64,000 nt of DNA from Nitrosovibrio sp. Nv4. Lineage in GTDB: Bacteria; Bdellovibrionota; UBA1018; CAIMNF01. The translations under genes and the position numbers were made by a program. The stretch covers positions 3,276-67,275 of the forward strand of contig CALPVV020000001.1 in assembly GCA_943327105.2 (NCBI GenBank), read 5' to 3'. Of the stretch, positions 1,211 through 35,720 are shown piece after piece. A model generated the notes under the pieces. It searched no databases and was not told where the DNA came from. It saw nothing but the letters and a program-made list of their open reading frames with translations. Each line of letters starts with the position of its first letter. Within the stretch, counting starts at the first letter, position 1.

Positions 1211-3422
1211 GCATTTCGCGATACTTCGGCAATGGCCAGAAATCATCGGCGACATGATTCTCAAGCGCATCACATTCCTTACGGAGAGCTTCCATCTGAG
1301 GTTTTAATTCAGCAGCGATTTTTGAAGCCCTTTCTTCTTCATTTTCGAGTGCAAAAATTGAAGCGGTGATCCGTTCCAATTTCTTGAGTTCAGTTTGAGC
1401 TGAAGCAAGTACTTGGTTGAGTTTAGTCAAAGGCTCGGCCTGAGGTGCTGAAATTCCAGCCGCTTTCAATGCAGCAACACCCTGAGCAAGAATGCTTGAG
1501 TATTGATATGCTGCCGGAAGAATCTGGGTCTCAGCCATGGTTTGAAGACATTCCGCTTCGATCAGTAGTTTCTTGTTATAGATTTCAATTCTAACATGAA
1601 AACGAGACTTAACTTCTTCTTCTGAGAAAACACCCAGACTGGTGAGAAGTTTGATCGATTTAGCACTCTCAATTTCGTGCAAGGCTTCCGGTGTGGTTTT
1701 CAAATGAGGGAGTCCGCGTTTTTCAGCTTCTTTAACCCAATCATCTGAATAGCCGTTTCCTTCGAAACGGATGTTCTTGGTTTCCTTGATTGCATCTTTA
1801 ACCACCGCAAAAATCGCTTCTTCAGTTGATTTTGCAGTCTTCATTTTTGCTTCAAGTTGAGTGGTGATTTCATCAAGTGCATCAGCTACGGCGCAGTTGA
1901 TGATCGTCACTGGAAACGCACATGAAGAAGAAGAACCGACGGCTCTGAATTCAAACTTGTTTCCGGTGAATGCGAAAGGTGAAGTGCGGTTGCGGTCAGT
2001 ATTGTCTTTCATTACTGTCGGCAACTTGCTTACACCGAGTTTGATTACGACTTCTTTATAGTCGAGACTCTGGTGGGTGTCTTTTTCAATTTCATTCAAC
2101 ATGTTATCGAGCATGTTACCCATGAAAGCTGAAATAATCGCCGGAGGAGCTTCGTTTGCACCAAGACGGTGATCATTTCCAGGTGAAGCGATCGCTGCAC
2201 GAAGTAGTCCAGCATGTTTGTGAAGCCCTTTGAGGGTCGCCATGAGGAACAAAAGAAAGCGAAGGTTCTGGTGCGGTGTTTTTCCTGGATCAAGAAGGTT
2301 GATGCCTTCGAGTTCGAGTGGACCAGTGCCAATGCCGATAGACCAGTTATTGTGTTTTCCGCTTCCGTTAACACCTGCAAATGGTTTTTCGTGAAGAAGC
2401 ACTTCGAAATCATGTTTCTTTGCAATTCTGCGGAGAACTTCCATTGTCACATGGTTGTGATCGACGGCAACGTTGGAGTCTTCAAAAATCGGTGCCACTT
2501 CAAATTGCATTGGAGCAACTTCATTGTGACGAGTTTTAGAAGGGATTCCCAATTTGAAAAGTTCATATTCAACTTCAGTCATGAAGGTGAGTACGCGGCT
2601 TGGAATGCTTCCGAAGTAGTGATCTTCCAATTGTTGACCCTTTGGAGGACGGGCTCCAACCAGGGTTCTTCCTGACATGATGAGGTCTGGACGAAGAGCA
2701 TAGAATGCTCGGTCGATGAGGAAATATTCTTGTTCAGGGCCTAGGTTGGTAACAATGGAAGTTACACCTTTATCACCGATCAGATTGAGGAGTTTGATCG
2801 CTCTGTTAGTGATGGCTTCATTACTACGAAGCAGACCTGTTTTTTCATCCAATGCATCACCATGGTACGAGATGAATACGGAAGGAATGCAAAGGGTGCG
2901 TGTAGAGCCTGCATCAGCGATGAAGATCGGAGAGGTTGGGTCCCAAGCTGCATAACCGCGAGCTTCAAATGTGGTTCTCATTCCGCCGGATGGAAAGCTG
3001 GATGCATCCGGTTCAGATTGAATGAGCTGAGAGCCTGAAAAGCGTTCCATTGGTGAGCCTGAGCTATCGATGCTGAGAAACGCATCATGCTTTTCAGCTG
3101 TAGTACCGGTTTGTGGTTGGAACCAGTGAGTGTAATGGGTTACGCCGTTTTCAATTGCCCATTCTTTCACCGCATGGGCTACCACGTTCGCCACTTCAAT
3201 TTCGAGTTTCTTCCCTGACTGTATGGTTTGAACAAGGCGCTTATAGATATCGTTTGGAAGTTTTTGCTTCATCTGTTTCAGGCTGAAGGTATTGATTCCG
3301 TAAAAGTCTGAAATTTTGAGAGTATTTCCCTTTTCGTCTTTTGGCGCTTCCACGATTTTTGATTTGCGTGAAATGACGGTTTGGATTGCGTTGAATCTAG
3401 GCTGTGAATTCTGATTGGACAT
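1197..3422 (-). CDS. glnN: Type III glutamine synthetase
   Basis: 741 aa. THYTHWFQPQTG..AEKHDAF, ERFSGSQLIQSEPDASSFPSGGMRTTFEARGYAAWDP and NEAPPAIIS match the GSIII (GlnN) family in motifs and length. Confidence 0.93.
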   Translation of the reverse strand: MSNQNSQPRFNAIQTVISRKSKIVEAPKDEKGNTLKISDFYGINTFSLKQMKQKLPNDIYKRLVQTIQSGKKLEIEVANVVAHAVKEWAIENGVTHYTHWFQPQTGTTAEKHDAFLSIDSSGSPMERFSGSQLIQSEPDASSFPSGGMRTTFEARGYAAWDPTSPIFIADAGSTRTLCIPSVFISYHGDALDEKTGLLRSNEAITNRAIKLLNLIGDKGVTSIVTNLGPEQEYFLIDRAFYALRPDLIMSGRTLVGARPPKGQQLEDHYFGSIPSRVLTFMTEVEYELFKLGIPSKTRHNEVAPMQFEVAPIFEDSNVAVDHNHVTMEVLRRIAKKHDFEVLLHEKPFAGVNGSGKHNNWSIGIGTGPLELEGINLLDPGKTPHQNLRFLLFLMATLKGLHKHAGLLRAAIASPGNDHRLGANEAPPAIISAFMGNMLDNMLNEIEKDTHQSLDYKEVVIKLGVSKLPTVMKDNTDRNRTSPFAFTGNKFEFRAVGSSSSCAFPVTIINCAVADALDEITTQLEAKMKTAKSTEEAIFAVVKDAIKETKNIRFEGNGYSDDWVKEAEKRGLPHLKTTPEALHEIESAKSIKLLTSLGVFSEEEVKSRFHVRIEIYNKKLLIEAECLQTMAETQILPAAYQYSSILAQGVAALKAAGISAPQAEPLTKLNQVLASAQTELKKLERITASIFALENEEERASKIAAELKPQMEALRKECDALENHVADDFWPLPKYREMLMLS

Positions 3423-3547
3423 GTTCGGTCTTCTCCTCTGGGTATATCAATAGTTTTTCATTTCCTGGGTGTATTGACAATGGAGCTATTAAATAAAATC
3501 TGTTTAACTAATTTTACGCAATTAGTCAACACCCAAAAGGAGACTGT

Positions 3548-4741
3548 TTAAAACAGTTGGTAAATTCTGAATTCAGAGTCAAGATTCCCATTATGAAGCT
3601 TAAGCTTCTTGGATGGCTTCAGTGCAATCGCATGAAAAAGGGGTAATTCTGAGGTAATAATCCCACACTGCCACCCTTTATAATGGTGCTTTAGGGTACT
3701 TCCCATGTCCTGATAGGTCCTTTTGAGGGCTTCAACCTCGCTCAAACGAACACCGTATGGAGGGTTGCTGACGATCAAACCATTGTCGGTTTCGGGGCGG
3801 CTAGCCTCAAATGAAGTATGTTCAAGCTTCACAACGCCTTCTAGACCACAGTTTTTAAGGTTAGACAAAGTTGCCTGAAGAGCTTCTGGGTTGATGTCGG
3901 CGCCTTTCATCAATGGAAGTTTTGCAGTGTTTTTTTCAATCTTTGCCATCAAAGACTCCCGGACACGCTCAAATAGCGCCGGTTGGTGATCACGCCAGGA
4001 ATAAAACCCAAAAATACTGCGGTGAATAGCGGGTGGAGTATTGGTTGCAATCATGGCGGCTTCAATCAGTAACGTGCCTGAGCCACAAAATGGGTCCAAG
4101 AATGGAGTTTTCTTTTTAGCAAGCTCGTCCCATCCGGCAAGAAGTAATAATCCTGCAGCAAGATTCTCTTTGATTGGTGCCTCAAGAGTTTTGGTTCGAT
4201 AACCCCGTTCATGCAAACTTCTACCAGACAAATCGAGATATATTTTCAGAATATGGTTATGAAGATGGAGGCGAATTGAAATATCAGGAGTTTGTCGATC
4301 GACATCGGGACGTTCACCGAAACGGTCATTATAGTAATCGGCAATTGCGTCTTTGGCTTTCAAAGCCCAGTACTGAACATTGATGTTATTCTTGCGGGCA
4401 TTGTTGTTTGTTTCTGTGAAATAGACTGCAAAAGTACAATTAGCTGAGAAGATTCTGTGCCATTCAACGCTTTTCACAGCATCGTAGAGTTCTTCTGGTT
4501 GAAATACTTTTTTAAAATCTTGAATCAATAAAAGGATTCGAGAAGCAGTTCGCAATGATAGGCATGCCCGGTAAGCGATTTCAAGATTACCTTCAAATTC
4601 AACACCGCCCGGATAAACTTCCAAAATCTTAGCCCCAATTTGATCAACTTCCTTTTTTAAGACTTCATCAAGTCCACCAGGACAAATGGCAAAGAGACGA
4701 TATAAGGTTTCAGATTTTTTTCGAATAATGGTCTTGCTCAT
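3548..4741 (-). CDS. THUMP-domain class I SAM-dependent RNA methyltransferase (RlmL/YpsC-like)
   Basis: 397 aa with DPFCGSGTLLIEAA (SAM motif I) and a SNPPYGVRL catalytic motif after an N-terminal THUMP-like region. Confidence 0.85.
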   Translation of the reverse strand: MSKTIIRKKSETLYRLFAICPGGLDEVLKKEVDQIGAKILEVYPGGVEFEGNLEIAYRACLSLRTASRILLLIQDFKKVFQPEELYDAVKSVEWHRIFSANCTFAVYFTETNNNARKNNINVQYWALKAKDAIADYYNDRFGERPDVDRQTPDISIRLHLHNHILKIYLDLSGRSLHERGYRTKTLEAPIKENLAAGLLLLAGWDELAKKKTPFLDPFCGSGTLLIEAAMIATNTPPAIHRSIFGFYSWRDHQPALFERVRESLMAKIEKNTAKLPLMKGADINPEALQATLSNLKNCGLEGVVKLEHTSFEASRPETDNGLIVSNPPYGVRLSEVEALKRTYQDMGSTLKHHYKGWQCGIITSELPLFHAIALKPSKKLKLHNGNLDSEFRIYQLF

Positions 4742-23171: not shown

Positions 23172-24593
23172 ATGGGCATGAACAGTGAAGCTCGTGCAAA
23201 AATTCTGGTAATTGATGATGATGTAGAAATTCAAGATCTTTTGATCGCTTTTTTTAAGCCGAAAGGTTTTGAGGTATTCATTCGTGATGACAGTCAAAAA
23301 GTGATTGATGAATTGTCATCGAAACAAATTGATCCTGATGTCATCATCTGTGATCTGCAATTGCCGAATATGACAGGAATAGAATTCACCCGAAAAACAA
23401 GGGAAATGGGAATTGAAATTCCGATCTTAGTAATAACAGGCACCAAAACCATAGAAACTGCAATCGAGGCAATCGATGCTGGTGCATATGATTTTGTGGT
23501 GAAGCCGATTCATCTTCAGCAATTACTGGTTTCAGTTGAAAGAGCATTGCATTTTAGAAATATCAAATCTGAAAATCAAACCTTGCGAACCGCAGTCCAG
23601 ATCAAAGAAGGAAATTATCCTGAAGGGATTATTGGTCGAAGTCCTGGATTCAAGAAAGTAATGGATCTTGCCAGACGTGTTGCTTCAAGCCAGGCAAACA
23701 TTTTCATTGGCGGTGAAAGTGGAACTGGTAAAGAGGTTGTTGCAAGAGCCATACACAATATGGGGCCAAGAGCGAAGAAGGAGTTTGTTGCCTTGAATTG
23801 CGCTTCGATTCCGGAGAGTTTGCTTGAGTCCGAGTTGTTTGGTTATGCAAAAGGATCCTTTACCGGTGCAATAGATAAACGAATAGGTCTTTTTGAAGAA
23901 GCTGATGGCGGTACGTTGTTTCTGGACGAGATTGGCGACTTGAGCCTGCCCTTACAGGCAAAGATTCTAAGGGTCTTACAGGAACGCCAGATCAAGAGAA
24001 TTGGCGAGAACAAGTATAGGACGATCGATGTACGTATCTTATCAGCGACACACCGAGATTTGCGCAAGGAAGTCGCTGAAGGACGTTTTCGAGAGGATTT
24101 ATTTTTTCGATTGAACGTAATTGAAATCAAAATCCCACCGCTTCGTGATCGAAAAGAAGACATTATGCCTTTGATTGATTTCTTTTTGAAGAAATTTTCA
24201 GTCTTGAATGGAATCAAAGTAAAAGGATTTTCTAAAGAGTCTCTTGAGGAAATACATGCCTATTCATGGCCTGGGAATGTGAGAGAGTTAGAAAACGCTG
24301 TGGAACGCGCGGTGATTCTCTGCGGTCCAGATGGATTGATTTTACCGGAAGATTTACCAGACTTTGGTTTTGGTTATACAAAAGAGGCGAGTCAAAGCGT
24401 TACCAATCCAGCTAAAGACCCTATTTACGCTGAAGCAGGAAAAACGATGACTATCGATGAGTTGGTAAAAAAGTATATAAAATTCATACTCGAAAAAAAT
24501 CAAGGCATGAAAGATAAGACCGCAATCGAGTTAAACATCGATCGGAAAACCTTATATCGAAAACTCAAGGAAATGGAGCTTGAAAGGCATTGA
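23172..24593 (+). CDS. Sigma-54-dependent Fis-family response regulator (NtrC-like: REC + AAA+ + HTH)
   Basis: Receiver (ILVIDDD..., DVIICDLQLPNMTG, KP). AAA+ Walker A GESGTGKE, ESELFGY (GAFTGA-region variant GSFTGA), Walker B LFLDEIG. C-terminal Fis-type HTH. Confidence 0.9.
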   Translation: MGMNSEARAKILVIDDDVEIQDLLIAFFKPKGFEVFIRDDSQKVIDELSSKQIDPDVIICDLQLPNMTGIEFTRKTREMGIEIPILVITGTKTIETAIEAIDAGAYDFVVKPIHLQQLLVSVERALHFRNIKSENQTLRTAVQIKEGNYPEGIIGRSPGFKKVMDLARRVASSQANIFIGGESGTGKEVVARAIHNMGPRAKKEFVALNCASIPESLLESELFGYAKGSFTGAIDKRIGLFEEADGGTLFLDEIGDLSLPLQAKILRVLQERQIKRIGENKYRTIDVRILSATHRDLRKEVAEGRFREDLFFRLNVIEIKIPPLRDRKEDIMPLIDFFLKKFSVLNGIKVKGFSKESLEEIHAYSWPGNVRELENAVERAVILCGPDGLILPEDLPDFGFGYTKEASQSVTNPAKDPIYAEAGKTMTIDELVKKYIKFILEKNQGMKDKTAIELNIDRKTLYRKLKEMELERH

Positions 24594-24600
24594 GTATTTT

Positions 24601-24640
24601 TGGGGGTGGGGGTTTTAGCAGGCTCCCACCCCCATCGTTT
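24601..24640. terminator. Bidirectional terminator candidate
   Basis: gggggtggg (24602-24610) pairs with cccaccccc (24625-24633). The hairpin is T-rich on both flanks and lies between convergent genes. Confidence 0.5.
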
Positions 24641-24680: not shown

Positions 24681-25202
24681 TCAGATCTCTATCTTGTGGA
24701 TGTGTTTCAGGATGTTTTCGATCATGTTCTGCAAATTTCCGCTCTTTTTGCTGACAAATCCCGAGTAGCGGAAGTGTTTGGTGCTCGATGCTTTGCATTC
24801 GGTTCTCTCCCTGCCTGATAGAACGATCACTTTGACTTTTTTATCCTCCCATTCATAAGGAAGATTAGGGTCAGTTTTAAAAACTTGCTCGGTTTTACTT
24901 AAAGTTTCGGCACCGGTCATTTCAGGAAGTATCCAATCAAGAATGATGGCATCAACCACTTGATGGTTCAGTATTTCCATTGCTTCAAAGGGGTCTTCAG
25001 CAGTAAAAACCTTGATGCGTCGGTCTTCAAGAAGTTTACTTTTCAGTAACTCACTTATTTCTTTGTCATCATCGATAATCAAAATCCGTTTTACAAAATT
25101 CTCTTTATTAAGATTTCCTGAAAACGGATATAGTAACGGATTGAACGACGGGTAATAGGCGCAATTCAGCTGATCTAGCAACATGATGTAATCCTCCAAC
25201 AT
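24681..25202 (-). CDS. Single-domain response regulator (receiver) with about 45-aa N-terminal extension
   Basis: ILIIDDDKEISELL..., AIILDWILPEMTG (phospho-acceptor Asp), VIVLSG, FVSKK. The start is uncertain: the ORF opens with TTG at 25229, and ATG candidates are at 25202 and 25184. Confidence 0.75.
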   Translation of the reverse strand: MLEDYIMLLDQLNCAYYPSFNPLLYPFSGNLNKENFVKRILIIDDDKEISELLKSKLLEDRRIKVFTAEDPFEAMEILNHQVVDAIILDWILPEMTGAETLSKTEQVFKTDPNLPYEWEDKKVKVIVLSGRERTECKASSTKHFRYSGFVSKKSGNLQNMIENILKHIHKIEI

Positions 25203-25259
25203 ACTCTTGATAAGCAAGAGTGATGCCAAACGATCGCCTAGAGTGATTGAATGATTTTA

Positions 25260-25526
25260 TTAATTTGATAATTTGGTTATGAAGTTTCGATAAGACGAAA
25301 ATTGAAGCTGAATGGCATTGATGTCATGTTGTGTTGCCCCAGTTTCTACCAGTTCACCAAATGAACTGATTTCAGGAAAACCATACATTGCACCATTGCC
25401 CTTGAGCTGATGACCAATTTTGAAGAGTAGATCATATTCTTTATTATGAAGGGCTGATTCGATTTGATCCAGTTCTTCTATTCTTCTATTGATGTAGGAT
25501 TGGAGTAGCTTTTCCGGTATTTTCAT
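25260..25526 (-). CDS. Hpt (histidine phosphotransfer) domain protein
   Basis: 88 aa, all-helical, with the canonical HQLKGNGAMYGF phospho-His motif. Confidence 0.75.
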   Translation of the reverse strand: MKIPEKLLQSYINRRIEELDQIESALHNKEYDLLFKIGHQLKGNGAMYGFPEISSFGELVETGATQHDINAIQLQFSSYRNFITKLSN

Positions 25527-25531
25527 TTCAA

Positions 25532-26206
25532 TTATGCCTGAAAGCGATAGCCTTCTCCGGCGCTTGATCGGATCACATGGCAGTATCGATCAAGTTTTTT
25601 ACGAAGATAACAGATGTGTGCATCAACAGTGCGTGTAGTAACGTGAATATCCTTACCCCAGATTTTATCAAGAATCATTTCACGACTAAAAGTCTGTTTA
25701 GGGTTCTTTGCCAAAAGATGGAGAATCTTAAACTCCCTCGGTGTCAAAGTGATGGGCGATTTAAGTCCGCTCAATCGAATGCTTTGGCTATGAAGTTCTA
25801 GAGTGATAGGCCCAGCTTGAAGTTGATCCATTTCGGTCTGTTTAGCCAGTCTTCGCTCAACCCTGGCCCTGAGTTCAAGCAAGTGAAAGGGTTTCGTAAT
25901 GTAATCTTCAGCACCAAACGAGAAGGCATCTACTTTAGAGCTTAAATCACTATTTGCACTCATGATGATCATGGGTGTGTGACGGTTCTTTTCATTTGTA
26001 AGAGCCTGCTCCAACAGATCCATTCCCTTTCCGTCAGGAAGATTCAAATCAACCAATATCAGTGAAAACCCTTCGGAATTGATTTTTCCAATCGCGGCAC
26101 CCATTGAACTACAGGTTTCAACTGCCAAGCCAGAAAGCTCCAAGCTGGCTTTAACCAGGTTGCTGAGTTCGACATCATCTTCAATCATTAGTATTTTCTT
26201 ATTCAT
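25532..26206 (-). CDS. OmpR/PhoB-family DNA-binding response regulator
   Basis: Receiver (ILMIEDD, LILVDLNLPDGKG, MSA, KPF) plus winged-helix (LTPREFKILHLLAKNP..FSRE.ILDKIWG......RTVDAHI..LRKKL). Confidence 0.9.
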   Translation of the reverse strand: MNKKILMIEDDVELSNLVKASLELSGLAVETCSSMGAAIGKINSEGFSLILVDLNLPDGKGMDLLEQALTNEKNRHTPMIIMSANSDLSSKVDAFSFGAEDYITKPFHLLELRARVERRLAKQTEMDQLQAGPITLELHSQSIRLSGLKSPITLTPREFKILHLLAKNPKQTFSREMILDKIWGKDIHVTTRTVDAHICYLRKKLDRYCHVIRSSAGEGYRFQA

Positions 26207-26308
26207 CGACTACGGTCTACTGCAATGAAGGTACCAGTGTAAAATGATTAATTTCGGTGCTTAAAAATAAAAAACACAAGTCATCAATTCTTCAAAAAAT
26301 CTTTAAAT

Positions 26309-27478
26309 TCATTTAAATTCATAGGGTTTTGACTGAATTAAAAAACAGTTGGGAGTGCCCAGTTGTGATCCGCATGTGTGGCATGTTGCCGGAGTGGGTT
26401 TGTTTCTCCCCTCGTATCTGATTTCATCAATAATGCTTTTTTTTCCACAGTTAATGCATCTTTTACTTTGCGACTGGGTGGTAATCTTTCCTTTATCTTC
26501 CGGATGTTCCTGATTCAGCGACCTTACCATTTGAAAAGGTGAAGTAAACCTCATTTCACTCAAGTTAACTCCGTTCAAGAATATGGAAACGGGGCCATCT
26601 TCAGAAATGGTGATTACAATTGCATGGGACACATCATATGAAAATCGAATTGAAGAGGTATGTCTTGTCCCCTTGTAGTTTGGGATTATTTTTTTACTCT
26701 TTGAAGAATAACGAATTTGAACCCCTGAGCTCATCAATACACCTTGTTGATTGATGAAGGTAGCGCCATCCGTCTGCGCTAATAAATGAAAAATTAACTT
26801 TATATGAGATTCGTCCATGAATGAAAGCTGGAGTGGTTCCAGGATTCCATTGGTTTTCTGAGGTGAAAGAAACCAAACTAAGATAGCCCCTACGTGTTCG
26901 GTTGGACTCAATAGATGATACGAAAATTCAAGTAGATTCTGTAAAACCCGTTTGTTTGTTTTTTCAACGCAAAAGCTGATGTTAGATGCCACGTTCTTGA
27001 TGTTTGGTTTGATAAGCCAGTTTCTTCGATCATGCAGAATGATTCTATCACCTTGGTAAATTCTGCATGTTCCGTTATTACTTCGGTTTAATATCAACCC
27101 CCCGGAGAGTGGAAAAAATTTCAGCATTTGAATTTCAGTTGATGATGATTCAGGAATCTTAATCAAACCGTAAAATGAGTTTTGAATAAACAGTGAATAC
27201 CAGTTGAGTCCATCAGCCATTTTTCGTGAAGTCTCGATTTGTTCTGGAAGTAATTTGATTTTTTCAAATTTATCGAAGTCATCAATCGATTCAACAAAAA
27301 TTGCGCCGTAAGAAAAAACAAACCCTTCATGAATCTTAGGTGCAATTGCAAAGTAAATTTCATCTATAATTTCTGGCGTGTTCAACCAGATGTTCGTTTC
27401 AAAGTTAAAGCCATTCAATTTTAATTCTTGAACAAGTATGATTTTCTGGTTTTTTTTTTGCTCATCACTTTCATGCAT
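26309..27478 (-). CDS. Diadenylate-cyclase-like (DisA_N/DAC-fold) protein with uncharacterised N-terminal region and C-terminal zinc ribbon
   Basis: aa ~195-300 carry the ordered DAC motif series: HVGAILV (cf. GALIV), QTDGATFI (cf. HDGAVII), KGTRHTSS (cf. GTRHRAA), ITISEDGPVSIF (cf. VVSEETGxIS). The C-terminus has CINC...CHTC. Confidence 0.6.
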   Translation of the reverse strand: MHESDEQKKNQKIILVQELKLNGFNFETNIWLNTPEIIDEIYFAIAPKIHEGFVFSYGAIFVESIDDFDKFEKIKLLPEQIETSRKMADGLNWYSLFIQNSFYGLIKIPESSSTEIQMLKFFPLSGGLILNRSNNGTCRIYQGDRIILHDRRNWLIKPNIKNVASNISFCVEKTNKRVLQNLLEFSYHLLSPTEHVGAILVWFLSPQKTNGILEPLQLSFMDESHIKLIFHLLAQTDGATFINQQGVLMSSGVQIRYSSKSKKIIPNYKGTRHTSSIRFSYDVSHAIVITISEDGPVSIFLNGVNLSEMRFTSPFQMVRSLNQEHPEDKGKITTQSQSKRCINCGKKSIIDEIRYEGRNKPTPATCHTCGSQLGTPNCFLIQSKPYEFK

Positions 27479-27580
27479 GACGTTTCATGATAGCCATATG
27501 CCGTAAAGAACGCGTTTAAATTAATTTTATACTTTTAGCATATATATTGCTGGTAAGAGTGTGGGATCTTTGTCCTGGGG

Positions 27581-28024
27581 ATGGCTATGGTTTCAAATGG
27601 ACAGCACATGGCGGTGTTGATAGTGGAAGATGATATTGCTGCATCTACACTGATTGATCGCGTGATGAGAAGTATCAGTCAAGATGTAGAGCTTGATTGG
27701 ACCACTTCAGCGGAAGAAGCAATCGAAATCATCGATACAGCGCATCGCTTAAAAATAAAACGACCATATGATTTAATTGTTTCTGATTTTTATCTTGATG
27801 GTTCCAAAAATGGACTGGATTTTTGGAACACCTGTCGGGACTTATTTCCCGATATACCTTTTGTCCTCATGTCGTCTTATGAGCCTGATTTTTTCATGCA
27901 AGATGACAGTGGTGTTTTGGTCCCTTATTTCCTTAAAAAGCCATTTAATTTACGTCAATGCAGGGACTTCTTTTCAGGTTTTTTCAAAAACAGTCAAAAA
28001 CCTGGATTATTAAATCTAAAGTAA
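27581..28024 (+). CDS. Single-domain response regulator (receiver)
   Basis: VLIVEDDIAAS, DLIVSDFYLDGSKNG, VLMSS, LKKPF. Divergent from the DAC-like gene. Confidence 0.75.
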   Translation: MAMVSNGQHMAVLIVEDDIAASTLIDRVMRSISQDVELDWTTSAEEAIEIIDTAHRLKIKRPYDLIVSDFYLDGSKNGLDFWNTCRDLFPDIPFVLMSSYEPDFFMQDDSGVLVPYFLKKPFNLRQCRDFFSGFFKNSQKPGLLNLK

Positions 28025-28069: not shown

Positions 28070-28294
28070 ATGGATCAATTCAAATCAAATACAAATGAAC
28101 TTATAGATCAGGGGAAGGAAGCGCTAAAGGAAGTTGAAAAACTTACTTTTGATACTCTGTCAGAAGCTGCTGAAAGACTGAACGAATCCGGAAGGAAATT
28201 GAAAACGTTGGTAAGGGAAAACCCAGGTCTGACCATAGCTGCGGGAATTGCGGTTGGGTTTGTGATGGCCAAACTAGTAAAGGCAAAAAAATGA
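28070..28294 (+). CDS. DUF883 (ElaB/YqjD-like) tail-anchored membrane protein
   Basis: 74 aa. Helical N-terminus and C-terminal ENPGLTIAAGIAVGFVMAKLV anchor, typical of the YqjD/ElaB family. Confidence 0.7.
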   Translation: MDQFKSNTNELIDQGKEALKEVEKLTFDTLSEAAERLNESGRKLKTLVRENPGLTIAAGIAVGFVMAKLVKAKK

Positions 28295-28443
28295 AAAGAT
28301 ATGAGACATTTGTCAGCGATCATCCCTATGCAGCAGTACTTACATCTGTCGGATGCGGAGTCATACTTGGAACTATTTTCAGGGTTACTACCCTGATCCG
28401 CCTGGCTTCATTGGCCTATCGTAGGAGTGGGCATGAAAGATAG
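28291..28443 (+). CDS. Mini-protein (50 aa) resembling only the DUF883 C-terminal anchor
   Basis: I translated this by hand, since it is below the 60-aa track cutoff: MKRYETFVSDHPYAAVLTSVGCGVILGTIF.... It has an ATGA start/stop overlap with the preceding gene. Confidence 0.35.
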   Translation: MKRYETFVSDHPYAAVLTSVGCGVILGTIFRVTTLIRLASLAYRRSGHER

Positions 28444-28605
28444 ATTAATTAATAAAAATCAGCATGCTCTAAAACTTAAGATAGCTAGAGAAAGAAAGTT
28501 TTTCAGAAGGTTCATTGATATTGAACGATTGAAAATTAAGTTGATGATAGCCGAAAGTATCCATTTCAGAAGAAGACAAGCTGTAAATTTAAATAGGAGT
28601 GAACC

Positions 28606-29088
28606 ATGATCAATCAAGCAGATATCAATATTGGAATTTATGAAACAGACCGAAGAGAAGTTGCAACCCAACTTGCAGTGCTACTTGCAGACACTTATCT
28701 TCTCTATTTAAAAACCCAAAATTTTCATTGGAACGTAACTGGAAAAATGTTCGGAACACTTCATCTACTTTTTGAGAACCATTATAAAGAAATGGCTGAG
28801 TCGATTGATGACATTGCTGAAAGTATCAGAGAGCTTGGATTTCATGCCCCGGCTACTTTTGAAGAGTTTCAGAAAAGAACTGCGATTCGTGAACCCGTTG
28901 GAATTCCCAAAGCCCAAGAGATGATACTTGAATTGGTGGTGGGCCATGAAGTGGTGATTGAAACAGCTCGAATACTGTTAGAAACTGCTCAAGTTGCAGG
29001 TGATTCTGCTACGGCTGATCTGGCAGTGAGAAGAATCCAAGCTCATGAAAAAGCGGCATGGATGCTAAGAAGCCATCTTGAAGATTGA
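28606..29088 (+). CDS. dps: Dps-family DNA-binding ferritin-like protein
   Basis: LADTYLLYLKTQNFHWNVTG..F..LH..FE..Y ferroxidase-site pattern. 160 aa. Confidence 0.9.
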   Translation: MINQADINIGIYETDRREVATQLAVLLADTYLLYLKTQNFHWNVTGKMFGTLHLLFENHYKEMAESIDDIAESIRELGFHAPATFEEFQKRTAIREPVGIPKAQEMILELVVGHEVVIETARILLETAQVAGDSATADLAVRRIQAHEKAAWMLRSHLED

Positions 29089-31821: not shown

Positions 31822-34134
31822 ATGAAATCGAATTTGATGACAATCCTCACATTCATCGCCATGATTCATACCGCTCATGCGGCTCCATCGACACTCGATG
31901 TGAAAAAACACGGCGAACAAGAAATCAAACAAGTGATTGAACCGATCGTAGAAAAATACTGCCATGAGCAGTGCCGCGTGGTTCACATTGAAACTGAAGT
32001 TGATCTCGCGGTTGATGATCTGACCACACCTGGCTTTGAAGATGGCGGCGGTAAGGTTACTTTGGCACCGGCAAGCGGCAAGGTTAAATTATTGATTGAT
32101 GAAAATCTTGGTAGCAAAAACCGTGGAATGATTATTGATTTGATGAAAGAACACTTTCTTTCATTGAATTTTCCTGTAGAGCTTGATGTTAAGGTTTCCA
32201 GGTTTCCACAGCCGGCATCATCTAACTATAAGACGGCTGAATTACGGGATAAGGTATCTCGCGACATTAAAAACTCCATCAACTCGCTTCTTACTCAATT
32301 CTGTTCAAAGCACTGTGTATTGGGTGAATTCGATGTTCAAACTGAGGCAGTCAACCCTGAAGATATTGACTATGCTTCCAATCAAGAATACTTCCAGGAC
32401 GGGCCTGCCGCTGTACGTGTGAAAAGTGTTAAGGCCAATATTATGGTTGATGAGATGATGCCATCGGCAGAAGCCGCAGGAATTATTGAAATGGCCAAAG
32501 TAAAAGTTGCTCAGTTCAAGAATGCAGACATTACTAGTCAAACCATGAAGTTTCCTAAAAGTGCAGAAGAGTTGAATGCTGCAATCGCATCAGCTGAAAC
32601 CAATGGCAAGAATGGCCGTATGCCTTCTTCAACGACTACTAATGACAACAAGGAAATGCGTGACAGTAAAGAAGTACACGACAGCAAGGAAGTCAAAGAT
32701 TCCAGAGAAATGAAAGACTCTAAAGAGTCTAAAACCGAAAATATTACCAAAAATGAAACCGGTAATAGAAGTGAACGATTTGAAAAATACGAAAAAATTG
32801 AACGGGTTGAAAATGGTGATGCGGTTCAGAAAACACTGGATAAGTTCCGTCTCTACGGAATCATCATCTCGGCAATCATTCTTGCTCTACTCTGTACTCT
32901 GGTTGTAACTTCGTTCCGGAAGCAGATCTTCACTACACTTGGGTTTCCAGGTGGTGGTGGCGATGGAAAAAGCAACGAAAGCAAGATTACACATTCATAT
33001 TCTTATGGTGGACTGAGTGATCCTTCCCTGACTAGTGATGAGAAGGGCGCTTTGATTGCACGTCGAATCGAAGCAAGCAACCTTTATAATGAGATGATCA
33101 ACATTTTCGGTGAGCAACCGAAAGTGGCGAAACATGTCTTTACCAATATTCTCACCGAAGAGGGAGTTGAAGAGGTTGCTAAATACCTTGAAATGTTTGG
33201 TGAGTCGGTGATGATGGATCTTTTGAAGGATCCTGGTCTTCAAACCGATTGTGCCGAGTTGATGGAATTTTACAGCAAAAACACATTCGAACTTTCTGAA
33301 GATGAAAAATTCAATCTTTTGAAGCGTCTTCACCATAGAACAACCACTGCCAAGATGCAGATCTTTGGAAGTAGATCGGCGACATTGTTCGATTTCCTTG
33401 CCGAAATGGAATCAAATCAGATTTCAGATATGGTCAAGAACGAGTCAAATACGGTCAAGGCGATCATTCTTACTCAATGTGATCAGAAAAAGCGCCAAGC
33501 TGTATTCAATTCTTATGATGAGGGCTTGAGATTAAAGTTGATGACAGAGTTGTCGCGAATCGATCATTTGCCTAAGAACTATATCTTTAACGTAGCATCG
33601 GCGCTACGTCGTAAAAAGGCAGAAAATCCGAAGTACAATACTGAAGCATTGCCAGGTTCAGATGTATTGGTTTCTTTCCTTGAGAAATCAGGTCTTGAAA
33701 CACAAAAGGCGATTGTTCAGCAATTGATGAGTTCTTCCAGCGGTGATGCGATTCATGCACTCAAGTCGAAATTGGCAAGTCTTGAATCGATACGCTACAT
33801 GAAGGACAGTCAGGTGACTGAGATTGCAACAAGCTTGAAGCACGACGAGTTCGTTCAATTTGTCAAAGGTACAACCGCTGACATCCGTGATGCGATCTTG
33901 AATAAAGTTTCACATGACTTGGCGATCGAGTTGTCTGAAGAAATTGATCTGGTTGAGGCTGTTGGTAGAGATACCTTCCTTTCGATTGAGCGTAAGATTC
34001 TGAATAAAATCAAAATTCTTGCAAACCAGGGTCAGATCAATCTCGCAGAAGTGAATGAAAAGATGTTTGCCAATGAGTTCGGTTTCGACACCACAAGTGA
34101 AATCGATGCATCAGACATGAAGAGAGTAGGATAA
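31822..34134 (+). CDS. Membrane-anchored FliG homologue: signal peptide + about 320-aa periplasmic domain + 1 TM + FliG N/M/C-like cytoplasmic domains
   Basis: The C-terminal ~400 aa are collinear with FliG. LTSDEKGALIA (cf. LTGxEKAAILL), FDFL..M...Q..DMVKNES.TVKAIILTQ.D...R..V....DE.LR..LM.E.SR, and VKGTTADIRDAILNKVSHDLAIELSEEIDL..AVGR....IERKIL.....LANQGQI (cf. E. coli LKGA...LREKFLRNMSQRAADILRDDLANRGPVR...VENEQKAIL...RRLAETGEM). TM helix at 32851-32916. Confidence 0.7.
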   Translation: MKSNLMTILTFIAMIHTAHAAPSTLDVKKHGEQEIKQVIEPIVEKYCHEQCRVVHIETEVDLAVDDLTTPGFEDGGGKVTLAPASGKVKLLIDENLGSKNRGMIIDLMKEHFLSLNFPVELDVKVSRFPQPASSNYKTAELRDKVSRDIKNSINSLLTQFCSKHCVLGEFDVQTEAVNPEDIDYASNQEYFQDGPAAVRVKSVKANIMVDEMMPSAEAAGIIEMAKVKVAQFKNADITSQTMKFPKSAEELNAAIASAETNGKNGRMPSSTTTNDNKEMRDSKEVHDSKEVKDSREMKDSKESKTENITKNETGNRSERFEKYEKIERVENGDAVQKTLDKFRLYGIIISAIILALLCTLVVTSFRKQIFTTLGFPGGGGDGKSNESKITHSYSYGGLSDPSLTSDEKGALIARRIEASNLYNEMINIFGEQPKVAKHVFTNILTEEGVEEVAKYLEMFGESVMMDLLKDPGLQTDCAELMEFYSKNTFELSEDEKFNLLKRLHHRTTTAKMQIFGSRSATLFDFLAEMESNQISDMVKNESNTVKAIILTQCDQKKRQAVFNSYDEGLRLKLMTELSRIDHLPKNYIFNVASALRRKKAENPKYNTEALPGSDVLVSFLEKSGLETQKAIVQQLMSSSSGDAIHALKSKLASLESIRYMKDSQVTEIATSLKHDEFVQFVKGTTADIRDAILNKVSHDLAIELSEEIDLVEAVGRDTFLSIERKILNKIKILANQGQINLAEVNEKMFANEFGFDTTSEIDASDMKRVG
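32650..32735 (+). repeat. About four imperfect 21-nt tandem repeats encoding KE(M/V)xDS(K/R)
   Basis: Translation is KEMRDSKEVHDSKEVKDSREMKDSKESK. It lies in the periplasmic juxtamembrane linker of the FliG-like protein. Confidence 0.7.
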
Positions 34135-34138
34135 CCGT

Positions 34139-34924
34139 ATGAATATTTCATCTTTAGTCGGAGTATTGGTTGGTCTTGCGGTAGTAGCCGCATCTCTCAC
34201 TGAAACAGGAATGGATCTGAAGTTCTTCCTGAACTTCCACGGAGTGGTGATTGTCTGTGGTGGAACATTCGCTGCAGCTGCAATCAGCTATCCATTGAAC
34301 AAGATCTTTATGTTGACGAAGGTGTTCTTCAATCGGTTGCTGGGTAAATCTAAAATCGATTACCAGGCAACAATTGAACAGATGCTCGATATCAATAAGA
34401 AGTTTTCACTAGGTCTTGTGAGCGGCAACGATGCTGCCAACCTAGCAACACACCCTTTCTTGAAAGAGGCTGTGATCTTGGTTGCAGACGGAGTGCTTTC
34501 AGAAAAAGAAATTCGTGCCGTGCTGGAGCAGCGATTAAAAACAATCGAATATCAGTATCATCATGAGGCGCAAATGTTCAAAGCACTCGGAAAGTATCCG
34601 CCGGCTTTTGGACTTCTTGCAACTACGCTTGGTATGATCGCATTACTTCAAAAAATCGGACAGCCGGGCGCGGAGAAACTAATTGGACCGGCGATGGCAA
34701 TCGGTCTTGTTGGAACCCTTTATGGAATTGGCTTGGCAAACTTGTTCTTCATTCCAGTATCGGATGCACTTGTTGATAAAACGGAAGATGAAATGGCGCT
34801 TCGAAGAATGATGGTAGAAGGTGCGGTTTTGCTCAAACAAAGAGTGAACCCATTATTCATGCGCGAAAACCTGAATTCCTTCCTGATGCCAAAAGACCGT
34901 ATTCGCAGAAAGTCGGCAGCTTAA
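34139..34924 (+). CDS. MotA/PomA-like stator channel subunit (4 TM with long TM2-TM3 cytoplasmic loop)
   Basis: 261 aa. Two N-terminal TM helices, an ~100-aa loop, then YPPAFGLLATTLGMIALL and IGLVGTLYGIGLANLFFIPVSD (MotA_ExbB channel signature including the conserved Pro positions). Confidence 0.85.
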   Translation: MNISSLVGVLVGLAVVAASLTETGMDLKFFLNFHGVVIVCGGTFAAAAISYPLNKIFMLTKVFFNRLLGKSKIDYQATIEQMLDINKKFSLGLVSGNDAANLATHPFLKEAVILVADGVLSEKEIRAVLEQRLKTIEYQYHHEAQMFKALGKYPPAFGLLATTLGMIALLQKIGQPGAEKLIGPAMAIGLVGTLYGIGLANLFFIPVSDALVDKTEDEMALRRMMVEGAVLLKQRVNPLFMRENLNSFLMPKDRIRRKSAA

Positions 34925-34925
34925 T

Positions 34926-35720
34926 ATGGCAGTCATTCGAAAGCTTGAAAAGCCACAAGAAGAAAATACGCTCTATATCATCGACAAGAAAAGGTCGAAG
35001 GAAGAGCATAGTGATTCAAACTGGATTATCAGTTACGCGGACATGATGACCCTGCTCTGTATTTTTTTCATCATGCTTTTCAGCATGTCGAAGATGAATA
35101 CACCCGAATTTGAATCGGTAAAGAAAGAAGTATCCGAACACTTTGGTGCAAAGTATGAGTCACCTACGGAAGATCTGGGTAAATTCATCAATATGGTTTT
35201 AGTTGAAGCCGGAGTTGAAAAACAGGTGACGATGACCAGCGATGGTACCAGTGTGAGTGTGGCTTTCCATTCAACGATGTTTTTCGATACTTTGAGTGCA
35301 GAGATTTCACCAGCTGGTAAAGAGATCGTTGAAAAAATAGCGACCAAGCTGAATGAGTATCAAACAAAGAAGAACAAAAAATATAAAATCGTGATCGAGG
35401 GTCATACTGATAGTCAAGCTGTTGTCGGTGGTCCTTTCCCGAGTAACTGGGAACTTTCCAGTGCCCGTGCTACACGAGTAGTGCGCCTGTTTATTGATAA
35501 GAGCTTTGACCCTAAAGTGATGTTACCGATTGGTTTTGCTGATACACAGCCTCTCGGGGCTGATCGCAATTCAGATGGAACTTGGAATGGTGAAAACTTG
35601 GCGAAAAACCGTCGCGTGATACTGAAGATTCTTTTGCCAGAGGCTGAGAATGTCACATTTGGTAAAAAAGAAACGCAAACTCCAGCGCCTGCCTCAGTTC
35701 CAGAACCAGTAAAGCAATAG
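34926..35720 (+). CDS. MotB-like stator subunit with OmpA-type peptidoglycan-binding domain
   Basis: NWIISYADMMTLLCIFFIMLF (single TM with the conserved ion-binding Asp). C-terminal IEGHTDS...SNWELSSARATRV...NRRV OmpA-like motif. It starts 1 nt after the motA-like stop. Confidence 0.85.
   Translation: MAVIRKLEKPQEENTLYIIDKKRSKEEHSDSNWIISYADMMTLLCIFFIMLFSMSKMNTPEFESVKKEVSEHFGAKYESPTEDLGKFINMVLVEAGVEKQVTMTSDGTSVSVAFHSTMFFDTLSAEISPAGKEIVEKIATKLNEYQTKKNKKYKIVIEGHTDSQAVVGGPFPSNWELSSARATRVVRLFIDKSFDPKVMLPIGFADTQPLGADRNSDGTWNGENLAKNRRVILKILLPEAENVTFGKKETQTPAPASVPEPVKQ

Follow-up and report, generated by a model that had tools for sequence, protein, structure and literature searches.

How is a protein to be read that carries altered motifs of a diadenylate cyclase (DAC), has further domains on both sides of them, and is encoded among two-component genes? 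The question is raised by an open reading frame for 389 amino acids in the window, by which we mean the whole stretch of 64,000 nucleotides analysed here. As far as its sequence goes, the protein is a member of the DACNK-DAC family (PF21753 + PF02457), which is catalogued and for which no experimental assay of any member was found in the searchable literature, and it is placed in a zinc-ribbon-bearing subfamily of Bdellovibrionota and a few other phyla. On balance we lean towards reading it as a cytoplasmic, active c-di-AMP synthase that is gated by a phosphorelay in the Bdellovibrionota clade. Gene calls on two metagenome scaffolds of ENA (ENA/Logan contigs), independent of one another, gave a protein identical to it (P0001). 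The AF2 model of the whole protein (pLDDT 92, pTM 0.86) shows DACNK, DAC and a Cys4 ribbon as three domains, tightly packed, and the gene, its domains and its motifs are located in the window as follows.

26309..27478, minus strand: DACNK-DAC-zinc-ribbon gene (ORF, 389 aa, ATG start)
27014..27430, minus strand: DACNK domain, residues 17-155 (structural domain to about residue 172), by Pfam PF21753
26570..26896, minus strand: DAC catalytic domain, residues 195-303, by Pfam PF02457, Foldseek and profile alignment
26762..26770, minus strand: DGA motif, D237-G238-A239, aligned to the DGA of CdaA
26645..26671, minus strand: GTRHTSSIR, residues 270-278, counterpart of RHR, aligned to GTRHRAA of CdaA
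26591..26605, minus strand: SEDGP, residues 292-296, counterpart of SEETG (SeD.GPV aligned to SEEtGgv)
26324..26485, minus strand: zinc-ribbon-like domain, residues 332-385, with Cys 341, 344, 366 and 369, from the CxxC-21-CxxC pattern and the model

The original prediction recognised no domain in the first ~190 residues, but residues 17-155 match PF21753, the "Probable sensor domain DACNK", with 38.8 bits (cut-off 27, E 9.8e-10, profile positions 4-143 of 146), and the isolated domain scores 41.6 bits. The N-terminus is thus a catalogued Pfam domain and the protein falls into a DAC family that had been defined before, presumably the "CdaK" of the Galperin 2023 scheme, in which DACNK-DAC is reportedly one of 22 DAC families. 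The HMM search and the structure prediction that had been proposed as checks were both run; the former returned DisA_N (PF02457) together with this sensor domain, and the latter a fold that matches the catalytic domains of DisA and CdaA. A DACNK profile search of 1.84 billion representatives gave 430 clusters at 50% identity, and among the best 150 of the 430 matches DACNK is almost always N-terminal in proteins of 300-430 aa. In nearly all of 79 homolog clusters DAC comes directly after it, and the protein is soluble and about 300-430 aa long; the short members of Acidimicrobiia type end straight after the DAC domain and have no ribbon. The conserved residues of DACNK in a 34-sequence alignment are E18, L19, H50, E51, G58, G90 (in ADG 88-90) and W154. 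All family-specific residues are present in the window protein, namely HEG, xDG and W in DACNK, and GTRHTS..R and SxDGP in DAC.

PF02457 matches the central part of the protein with 43.7 bits (curated gathering cut-off 27, E 2.4e-11) over profile positions 11-117 of 119. The only significant Foldseek matches in the PDB are catalytic domains of DisA and CdaA (prob 1.00, E 2e-5 to 5e-4), from Mtb and T. maritima DisA and from Bs, Sp, Ef and Sm CdaA, and no other fold came below E 0.1 among the whole-protein PDB matches. The DAC profile aligns to the sequences of solved CdaA and DisA, and the motifs match CdaA residue for residue. GAILV (residues 197-201), DGA, GTRHTS (270-275) and SEDGP all stand where they had been claimed, and the DAC match is far too strong to be due to chance.

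Two of these motifs are altered, as the original prediction had pointed out, and both changes are borne out by the CdaA alignment. The canonical RHR is replaced by R272-H273-T274, which keeps the first Arg and His and has Thr274 at position 3. In SEDGP, Asp294 aligns with the second Glu of SEETG and one residue is deleted. Position 3 of RHR is Thr in 138 and Arg in none of the 154 full-length representatives with a G[TS]RH motif. G[TS]RH[TS] occurs in 79/79 clusters, and an Arg at i+4 (Arg278 here) in 78/79 clusters and in 144 of those 154 representatives. Asp at position 294 is found in 78/79 clusters, the residue before it being variable, and in 139/154 representatives. DGA is invariant both in the 34-sequence alignment and in 79/79 clusters; in that alignment G270, T271, R272, H273, S275 and S292 are invariant together with D237, G238 and A239, and D294 is at least 90% conserved. 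This conservation of the DAC motifs holds at about 25% overall identity. The spacing from DGA to RH is 35 in 77/79 clusters, which is near canonical, CdaA and DisA having about 32-33 (2-3 fewer).

By these alignments GTRHT(S) and S-x-D-G-P with a near-invariant i+4 Arg are the majority signatures of the family and no peculiarity of the window protein, which is therefore not singled out by its variant motifs. The family is shown in the same alignments to keep the core residues of solved DACs, i.e., the Asp-Gly of DGA, GTRH, the Ser and the acidic residue at the SEE position. Arg278 lies one helical turn after Thr274 and, judging from helical periodicity, may compensate for the second Arg of RHR, and the Glu-to-Asp change with its one-residue deletion is plausibly functional. 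All DACs need a head-to-head pair of DAC domains. If the protein is catalytically active, two of its DAC domains would meet head-to-head and condense two ATP into c-di-AMP.

The motif variants had been taken as a hint of a divergent enzyme, of another product or of a non-catalytic binder. The variants are real, and their strict conservation across the family argues against a decayed, non-catalytic binder. RHR has been described as essential for ATP binding, and we counted this report against our main reading; in the RHR-to-AAA mutant all three residues were exchanged, which does not separate the second Arg. PanS, the DAC of the Panoptoo/PanDA defence, has non-canonical DGF and GGR and yet is experimentally active. 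It retains only DG(F) and GGR, i.e., the Asp-Gly and the first Arg, so both the His and the second Arg are dispensable for DAC chemistry, and Mtb DisA G73A likewise remains active. We think it unlikely that the DAC domain is a pseudo-cyclase that binds a nucleotide or c-di-AMP and serves the phosphorelay as receptor or scaffold, even though the canonical RHR and SEE are both altered and DACNK, in the same protein, already looks like a degenerate DAC module. It is usual for pseudo-enzymes to have lost the first Arg and the catalytic Asp, and here D237, G238, R272, H273, S292 and D294 are retained as described above. The second Arg appears relocated and not lost, active PanS tolerates far greater motif divergence, and genuine decay of a DAC-like domain can be seen in DACNK, whose catalytic residues are gone.

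Another explanation accepts an active enzyme and gives it a product other than 3'3'-c-di-AMP, either mixed (e.g., cUA) or linear of pApA type, made through the remodelled RHT with Arg278, SxDGP and the slightly longer loop after DGA. The family does have the 2-3 extra residues between DGA and RH, and the position aligned to the Tyr of CdaA that we take to be adenine-stacking is not conserved in it. With a remodelled "lid" loop from DGA to the Arg motif, a DAC domain can make 3'3'-cUA, as PanS does. The insertion in our family is smaller than that of PanS (D71 to R108 = 37), however, and the changes lie at phosphate and metal contacts and not at base-contacting positions. Most DAC families studied make c-di-AMP, and the locus has neither a defence-island context nor a PADLOC match. 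Such a product is accordingly improbable to us. PanS, moreover, consists of a DAC domain alone, 150 aa in length and with its lid loop extended, synthesises cUA or c-di-AMP constitutively and is paired with a membrane effector, whereas the window protein has 389 aa, three domains and a two-component context.

The N-terminal module may itself derive from a DAC domain. Modelled alone, DACNK reached pLDDT 90.9. In a Foldseek comparison with the PDB, each of its 14 best matches is a DAC domain (prob up to 0.95, E 1e-2, TM about 0.4). The comparison of the two halves by HHalign gave P 0.012 and probability 3.6% in a collinear register with 154 sequences, probability 1% with 34 sequences, and no match in global mode. 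Relaxed HHalign recovers GAIFVES~GAILVW, an echo on which the original prediction had based its weak inference of an internal duplication, and GGLILNRSNNGTCRIY is aligned with AIVITISEDGPVSIF in the register of DACNK against DAC. The second echo it had proposed, FFPLSGGLILNRSNNGTCRIY with PLHDGAVII, is in the wrong register, the equivalent of DG being ADG 88-90. Among DACNK domains no match to Pfam DAC was found, sub-threshold matches included, and DACNK keeps no catalytic residues of DAC. With so weak a signal of homology at the sequence level, the duplication rests on fold similarity and a weak collinear alignment. DACNK is thus probably a degenerate DAC-like sensor module, and an ancient internal duplication of DACNK and DAC has fold-level support from the models, which goes beyond the databases searched.

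At the other end of the protein, the four-Cys ribbon that had been noticed as absent from DisA, CdaA and CdaS agrees both in its Cys positions and in its modelled hairpins. Its knuckles are CINC (341-344) and CHTC (366-369) with 21 residues between them. It is modelled as two beta-hairpins with pLDDT 93-97 (AF2), in which C341 and C344 lie between strands 332-340 and 347-355, and C366 and C369 precede strands 372-374 and 380-385. CxxC-21/22-CxxC occurs in 42/79 clusters, with a spacer of exactly 21 in 40 of the 42, and a Cys4 ribbon is present in 99/154 representatives. A Pfam search of the ribbon tail gave no family at cut-off, the best matches being DUF6510 (22.4 vs 26.4, with the tail of a relative) and Zn_ribbon_4 (16.6 vs 30.3). 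By its putative zinc ribbon a large subfamily can be recognised that is covered by no Pfam model, a finding that goes beyond the databases searched.

As compared to the other members of the DACNK-DAC family, the window protein has the same domain order, GTRHTS..R, S-x-D-G-P and the fixed spacing from DGA to RH, and nothing excludes its membership; it differs from the Acidimicrobiia type in being longer and in having the C-terminal Cys4 ribbon. With CdaA, DisA, CdaS and DacZ it shares the catalytic fold, DGA, GTRH and the Ser-acidic motif, and head-to-head dimers are presumably needed too. It lacks, however, the transmembrane N-terminus of CdaA, the HhH DNA-binding domain of DisA, the helices of CdaS and the PK_C-like DacZ_N domain, and it differs from all four in RHT for RHR, in SEDGP for SEETG with the one-residue deletion, and in the extra ribbon. 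An equivalog of CdaA, CdaS or DacZ was rejected on the NCBIfam scores (CdaA 15.8 vs 188.8, CdaS 13.8 vs 225, DacZ 11.6 vs 430). CdaG (DACNG-DACNH-DAC) of the CBASS-type DS-2 defence operons likewise has its DAC after an uncharacterised N-terminal module, and the DACNH of CdaG has been described as a very distant, non-catalytic relative of DAC. By analogy DACNK seems to be another case of this kind, although the N-terminal Pfam families of CdaG are others and DACNK domains give no match to DACNG or DACNH. An anti-phage DAC (CdaG/DS-2C or PanS) was rejected as well, there being no PADLOC match, an NCBIfam DS2_3 score of 12.8 bits against a cut-off of 630, and no defence context.

The control of the predicted cyclase has to be sought in its surroundings, where the following features were mapped.

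27581..28024, plus strand: stand-alone receiver (REC), 147 aa, by Pfam Response_reg
27479..27580, no strand: intergenic region of 102 nt that separates the DAC gene from the stand-alone REC gene and presumably holds divergent promoters
26207..26308, no strand: gap of 102 nt from the DAC stop to the start of the OmpR-type response regulator, with no terminator-like hairpin
25532..26206, minus strand: OmpR-type response regulator, by Pfam Response_reg and Trans_reg_C
25260..25526, minus strand: Hpt phosphotransfer protein, 88 aa, HQLKG motif, by Pfam Hpt (34.1 bits)
24681..25229, minus strand: second stand-alone receiver, downstream of Hpt, by Pfam Response_reg

The genes named in the original prediction are all in place. 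The distance of 102 nt to the OmpR-type regulator is exact, the gap to the divergent receiver is likewise 102 nt, and Pfam confirms the regulator, Hpt and receiver identities. The scan for terminator-like hairpins found none between the DAC gene and the downstream genes, and no sigma-70 consensus site was scored in either 102-nt gap by a scan that is uninformative for this lineage. The stand-alone receiver is intact, with the acidic pair (EDD), the phospho-acceptor Asp (DLIVSD), the S/T (LMSS) and the Lys (LKKP), and its phospho-acceptor residues are all conserved in the alignment of its orthologs. For the second receiver the gene callers give 167 aa with a later start, and it has orthologs in L001 and L084.

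Specific orthologs of the stand-alone REC (E 1e-20 to 1e-41) adjoin the DAC gene in 12 of the 14 loci of the Bdellovibrionota clade. The cyclases of this clade are 36-51% identical, and the adjacency is kept despite differing outer flanks; at L086 the orientation has changed and REC lies on the same strand as the cyclase with a 10-nt gap. Hpt is downstream in 10/14 loci, and in those that lack OmpR it is the next gene after DAC, at a distance of 6-110 nt. A hybrid kinase adjoins the cyclase locus in L084. The OmpR gene stands between DAC and Hpt in the closest relatives only (the window, P0005, P0008 and L001) and is absent at L002, L003, L005, L006, L084 and L092. The idea that the cyclase gene heads an OmpR/Hpt operon therefore holds for Hpt, whose link is conserved, and was overstated for OmpR. 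The conserved partners of the cyclase gene in the clade are the divergent stand-alone REC and Hpt, not OmpR. The conserved neighbourhood makes a functional link plausible, in line with the cross-talk to two-component signalling that had been suggested. Dps, CsbD and DUF883-type stress genes recur near cyclase loci, and the neighbours in the window are two-component, stress and housekeeping genes.

The cyclase might also be unrelated to these neighbours, with synteny inherited in one lineage and control exerted only by a ligand of DACNK and/or the zinc or redox state of the ribbon. Most of the family has neither REC nor Hpt nearby: the link was absent at the Acidimicrobiia short-form, cyanobacterial and other loci examined outside the Bdellovibrionota clade, and the zinc ribbon is present without a REC neighbour in other phyla. 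REC is also absent at two clade loci, L004 and L091, and it is the stress genes that recur near cyclases of the family instead. The link cannot therefore be intrinsic to the family. On the other hand, the REC adjacency has outlasted rearranged outer flanks and an inversion of orientation among cyclases as divergent as those of the clade, the short distance from the cyclase stop to the Hpt start in the OmpR-less loci is typical of co-transcription, and even the REC-less L091 is flanked by two sensor kinases. We accordingly regard an unrelated cyclase as hardly likely.

Under the preferred reading, that of an active c-di-AMP synthase under phosphorelay control, the input in the Bdellovibrionota clade would run from a hybrid kinase to Hpt and on to the receivers. 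The receiver encoded next to the cyclase consists of a single domain, with no output domain attached, and would bind the cyclase depending on its phosphorylation; the DACNK module and the zinc ribbon would control the formation of productive DAC-DAC dimers, and c-di-AMP synthesis would thereby become an output of two-component signalling. Gene adjacency alone is no proof of physical interaction; it would be just as compatible with a cyclase that is a transcriptional target or is simply co-regulated. The REC-GGDEF proteins of PleD/WspR type offer an analogy only: in them receiver phosphorylation controls a dimerisation-dependent synthesis of cyclic dinucleotides, but the GGDEF fold is unrelated and the receiver is fused in one polypeptide, whereas here it has a gene of its own beside that of the cyclase, and an interaction of the two is hypothetical. 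As a tentative and more specific proposal, the Hpt-fed receiver of predatory Bdellovibrionota may dock onto the DACNK pseudo-DAC, an ancient degenerate duplicate, and/or onto the ribbon, and so release or enforce inhibition by an intramolecular pseudo-dimer. C-di-AMP, or another dinucleotide made through the RHT/SxDGP site, would then be a direct two-component output and the protein the first phosphorelay-wired diadenylate cyclase.

The known controls of c-di-AMP synthesis are membrane partners (CdaR, GlmM), DNA structures (DisA) and sporulation helices (CdaS). We know of no cyclase under the control of two-component phosphotransfer, and literature searches likewise found none; the adjacent stand-alone receiver and Hpt are a concrete candidate regulator for a diadenylate cyclase. 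The family is also a natural experiment on which residues of RHR and SEE are needed for DAC chemistry, and it may be a second case, after DACNH, of a DAC catalytic domain of which a duplicate degenerated to become its regulatory module. To our knowledge the work on cyclic dinucleotides in Bdellovibrio-like predators concerns c-di-GMP and cGAMP, and the locus would open c-di-AMP signalling in these bacteria.

The gene at 26309..27478 is present as the original prediction described it; it lies on the minus strand, starts with ATG and encodes 389 aa. Two independent ENA metagenome scaffolds, of 325 kb and 231 kb, and a Logan contig encode the identical protein, flanked by identical neighbours. 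The product has a diadenylate cyclase (DAC) domain, which matched Pfam at residues 195-303 with 43.7 bits (E 2.4e-11, curated cut-off 27), and the motifs were found at the positions first proposed:

residues 197-201, GAILV
residues 237-239, DGA
residues 270-275, GTRHTS
residues 292-296, SEDGP
residues 341-344 and 366-369, CINC and CHTC

The AF2 model, computed from a family alignment of 34 sequences, was confident throughout (mean pLDDT 92, pTM 0.86). In the PDB its only significant fold matches were DisA and CdaA catalytic domains (prob 1.00, E 2e-5 to 5e-4), which together with the Pfam match bears out the DAC identity. The N-terminal region had been described as lacking a recognisable domain; this was wrong, because residues 17-155 match PF21753, 'Probable sensor domain DACNK' (38.8 bits, cut-off 27), which gives the cyclase the catalogued DACNK-DAC architecture. 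Among 5.8 billion proteins, a word-indexed search gave 79 homologue clusters, nearly all annotated with PF21753 and PF02457. When a DACNK-only profile was run exhaustively with HMMER against 1.84 billion representatives, 430 clusters scored E <= 1e-3, of which 268 also reached E <= 1e-10; in nearly all of the matches listed, DACNK is the N-terminal part of a protein of 300-430 aa. Two long proteins, P0083 (1518 aa) and P0189 (934 aa), matched this profile in 24 and 13 short stretches of about 25-30 profile positions each; these stretches most likely reflect repeats or composition, not genuine DACNK domains. In the scheme of Galperin (2023), as cited by others, DAC enzymes fall into 22 families by N-terminal domain and CdaG is named after DACNG, so the DACNK-DAC family is presumably 'CdaK'; no experimental work on it was found in the literature searched. 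The cyclase shows every testable feature of this family and does not qualify as CdaA, CdaS, DacZ or a defence DAC; the canonical RHR, taken strictly, is absent from it and likewise from the bulk of the family. It is a further member of a catalogued, experimentally unstudied family.

The original prediction singled out the Thr in place of the second Arg of RHR and the SEDGP in place of SEETG. Both are present, but they are majority signatures of the family rather than peculiarities of this protein, as shown by censuses of the 79 clusters and of 154 full-length representatives with G[TS]RH at <=50% identity.

Active-site residues in the two motif censuses
Residue after RH: Thr or Ser in 79/79 clusters; Thr 138, Ser 5, Asn 4, Ala 3, other 4, Arg 0 among the 154 representatives
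Arg four residues past that position (R278): 78/79 clusters; 144/154 representatives
S-x-D-G-P: Asp kept in 78/79 clusters, preceding residue variable; Asp in 139/154 representatives

Thr after RH is a majority state and not an absolute rule, because a minor sister subset (P0155, P0168, P0172, P0176, P0218) carries DLA for DGA together with G[ML]RHRSA, the canonical second Arg being present; P0128 and P0134 combine DLA with GARHTSA. From these sequences, the Gly of DGA and the third RHR position seem to co-vary in part of the family. Profile-to-PDB alignment matched DGA to DGA, GTRHTSa to GTRHRaA and SeD-GPV to SEEtGgv; Asp294 thereby takes the place of the second Glu, and one residue is deleted. 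In the 34-sequence alignment, where distant members share only ~25% identity overall, D237, G238, A239, G270, T271, R272, H273, S275, S280, D282, S292, G295 and G303 are invariant, and T274, R278, D294, P296 and V297 are conserved at 90% or more. That the Asp, the first Arg, the His and the Ser-acid pair are so strictly conserved speaks for retained catalysis. In the AF2 model a helix begins at residue 271; by helical periodicity R278 (i+4) would lie on the same face, and it may replace the lost second Arg. Two phosphate and metal contacts of the DAC are remodelled in a family-specific way. PanS, an experimentally active minimal DAC whose conserved catalytic sites are only DGF and GGR, with D71 and R108 touching the phosphodiester, is a precedent for activity with non-canonical motifs; in Mtb DisA, G73A was active and the 'RHR essential' result came from a triple AAA mutant. 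A DAC domain reduced to a non-catalytic binder, which the original prediction had allowed for in view of the variant motifs, is therefore unlikely given the conserved catalytic residues. DGA-to-RH spacing is 35 residues in 77/79 clusters, between the ~32-33 of CdaA and DisA and the 37 of PanS (from published numbering), whose longer lid loop permits cUA synthesis. This intermediate spacing leaves some room for another nucleotide product, which we consider improbable, and c-di-AMP is the most probable product of the cyclase.

The DACNK domain looks like a degenerate DAC. When residues 12-175 were modelled alone (24-sequence alignment, no templates, pLDDT 90.9), each of the top 14 Foldseek matches among 350,542 PDB chains was to a DAC catalytic domain. 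These matches cover three subfamilies (Mtb and M. smegmatis DisA, Mycoplasma DacM, and CdaA), and their scores were modest (prob 0.54-0.95, best E 1e-2, TM ~0.4, none at E 1e-3). HHalign of DACNK against the DAC half gave a probability of 1% with 34 sequences and 3.6% (P 0.012) with 154; its global mode yielded no DACNK-DAC alignment, and none of the DACNK domains tested gave a sub-threshold Pfam DAC match. Relaxed local HHalign gave a 110-column alignment whose register is the one that the order of secondary-structure elements predicts, pairing YGAIFVES with VGAILVWF (G58 with G197), MADG with TDGA (D89-G90 with D237-G238), and GGLILNRSNNGTCRIY with HAIVITISEDGPVSIF. The internal duplication suggested earlier is therefore supported at fold level by the matches of the model, and its sequence evidence, the collinear local alignment included, is weak; of the two motif echoes proposed in the N-terminal half, the first (GAIFVES) was right and the second was in the wrong register.

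The four Cys of the putative ribbon at the C-terminus were also confirmed, with both Cys knuckles at modelled beta-hairpins (pLDDT 93-97), and no Pfam family reached its cut-off on this tail. CxxC-21/22-CxxC occurs in 42/79 clusters (spacer of 21 residues in 40/42) and in 99/154 full-length representatives, and is missing from the Acidimicrobiia-type short form, whose proteins stop after the DAC domain. Zinc-dependent stability, oligomerisation and partner docking are candidate roles.

Pfam bore out the identities proposed for the neighbouring genes:

25532-26206, same strand as the cyclase, OmpR-type regulator
25260-25526, same strand as the cyclase, Hpt
24681-25229, minus strand, receiver
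27581-28024, divergent from the cyclase, stand-alone receiver

The gaps on both sides of the cyclase gene are 102 nt each, and no terminator-like hairpin was found between it and the downstream genes. For the downstream receiver, the longest ORF spans 182 aa. Gene callers gave 167 aa on the identical metagenome contigs, and the Pfam match begins at residue 49; the true start is probably a later ATG. The 87-nt gap separating this gene (ending at 24681) from a convergent NtrC-type regulator gene (ending at 24593) holds a strong terminator-like hairpin (24601-24634, plus; 15-bp G-rich stem with 9 GC pairs), probably a bidirectional terminator closing the cyclase-side gene string.

Relatives are encoded at 229 loci in 185,579 GTDB species genomes; the closest (36-42% identity) belong to Bdellovibrionales, Bacteriovorax and Oligoflexia MAGs, and most others to Acidimicrobiia. 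Synteny of the window with the Bdellovibrionales MAG locus L001 is extended (NtrC-type regulator E 2e-249, OmpR E 7e-90), and the DNA thus most probably comes from a bacterium of the Bdellovibrionota. We surveyed 14 distinct loci of the zinc-ribbon clade, with cyclases 36-51% identical to that of the window. In 12/14 the stand-alone receiver has a specific ortholog directly beside the cyclase (phmmer E 1e-20 to 1e-41 in loci with DNA sequence), usually divergent, but on the same strand and 10 nt upstream in L086; these orthologs retain the acidic pair, phospho-acceptor Asp, Ser/Thr and Lys. Hpt lies downstream in 10/14, directly after the cyclase (6-110 nt) where OmpR is absent. The two-component link of the original prediction thus stands for the receiver and Hpt but not as an 'OmpR operon', since only the window, P0005, P0008 and L001 have an OmpR-type regulator between the cyclase gene and Hpt. 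The link was not found outside the clade in the loci of Acidimicrobiia, a cyanobacterium and others examined. Together, the data support a clade-specific functional coupling of cyclase, receiver and Hpt, not a property of the whole family. A coincidental neighbourhood has a low probability: the outer flanks vary (MscL and lipase in L085, a hybrid kinase in L084, kinases in L086) and L091 is without the receiver, yet the adjacency to phosphorelay parts is conserved, and L091 itself is flanked by PAS and GAF sensor kinases.

Other genes recur around these loci. An NtrC-type sigma-54 activator (REC-AAA-HTH_8; window 23172-24593, plus) lies beside the cluster in most Bdellovibrionota loci (window, P0005, P0008, L001, L002, L084, L090, L092), in L092 in the same strand string directly after Hpt, and may be a transcriptional output of the same phosphorelay. 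Small general-stress-type genes, namely a 74-aa DUF883_C-like protein and Dps/ferritin (window 28070-29088, plus), CsbD and a DUF883_C-like gene (L090, 5384-5938) and CsbD (L092, 1426-1701), could point to a stress or osmotic regulon at the cyclase locus. At 31822-35720 (plus), a 770-aa protein with FliG_M (weak) and FliG_C matches, unusually large for a FliG-like protein, is directly followed by a stator pair of MotA/ExbB type (34139-34924) and MotB_plug/OmpA type (34926-35720); the P0005 contig has a similar-sized set (760, 232 and 367 aa, no Pfam matches on record) ahead of its cyclase locus. A cyanobacterial zinc-ribbon member (L087, Symploca sp. contig, 3106-3930) beside a phage-type integrase and several ORFs without Pfam matches suggests that some DACNK-DAC members are on mobile elements.

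The protein is a soluble three-domain DAC with a conserved, apparently intact catalytic core. Head-to-head dimers are the general DAC mechanism, and the cyclase would synthesise c-di-AMP through them; dimer formation would be gated by the pseudo-DAC DACNK domain and the ribbon, and the phosphorylated single-domain receiver may provide the input through protein-protein contact. Relative to the databases and papers searched (the Galperin 2023 family paper lying outside them), the zinc-ribbon subfamily, the Bdellovibrionota REC/Hpt linkage and the DAC-like fold modelled for DACNK are new. The cyclase is less strange than its sequence alone implied, and its locus is a candidate in which two-component control of c-di-AMP synthesis could be tested cleanly.
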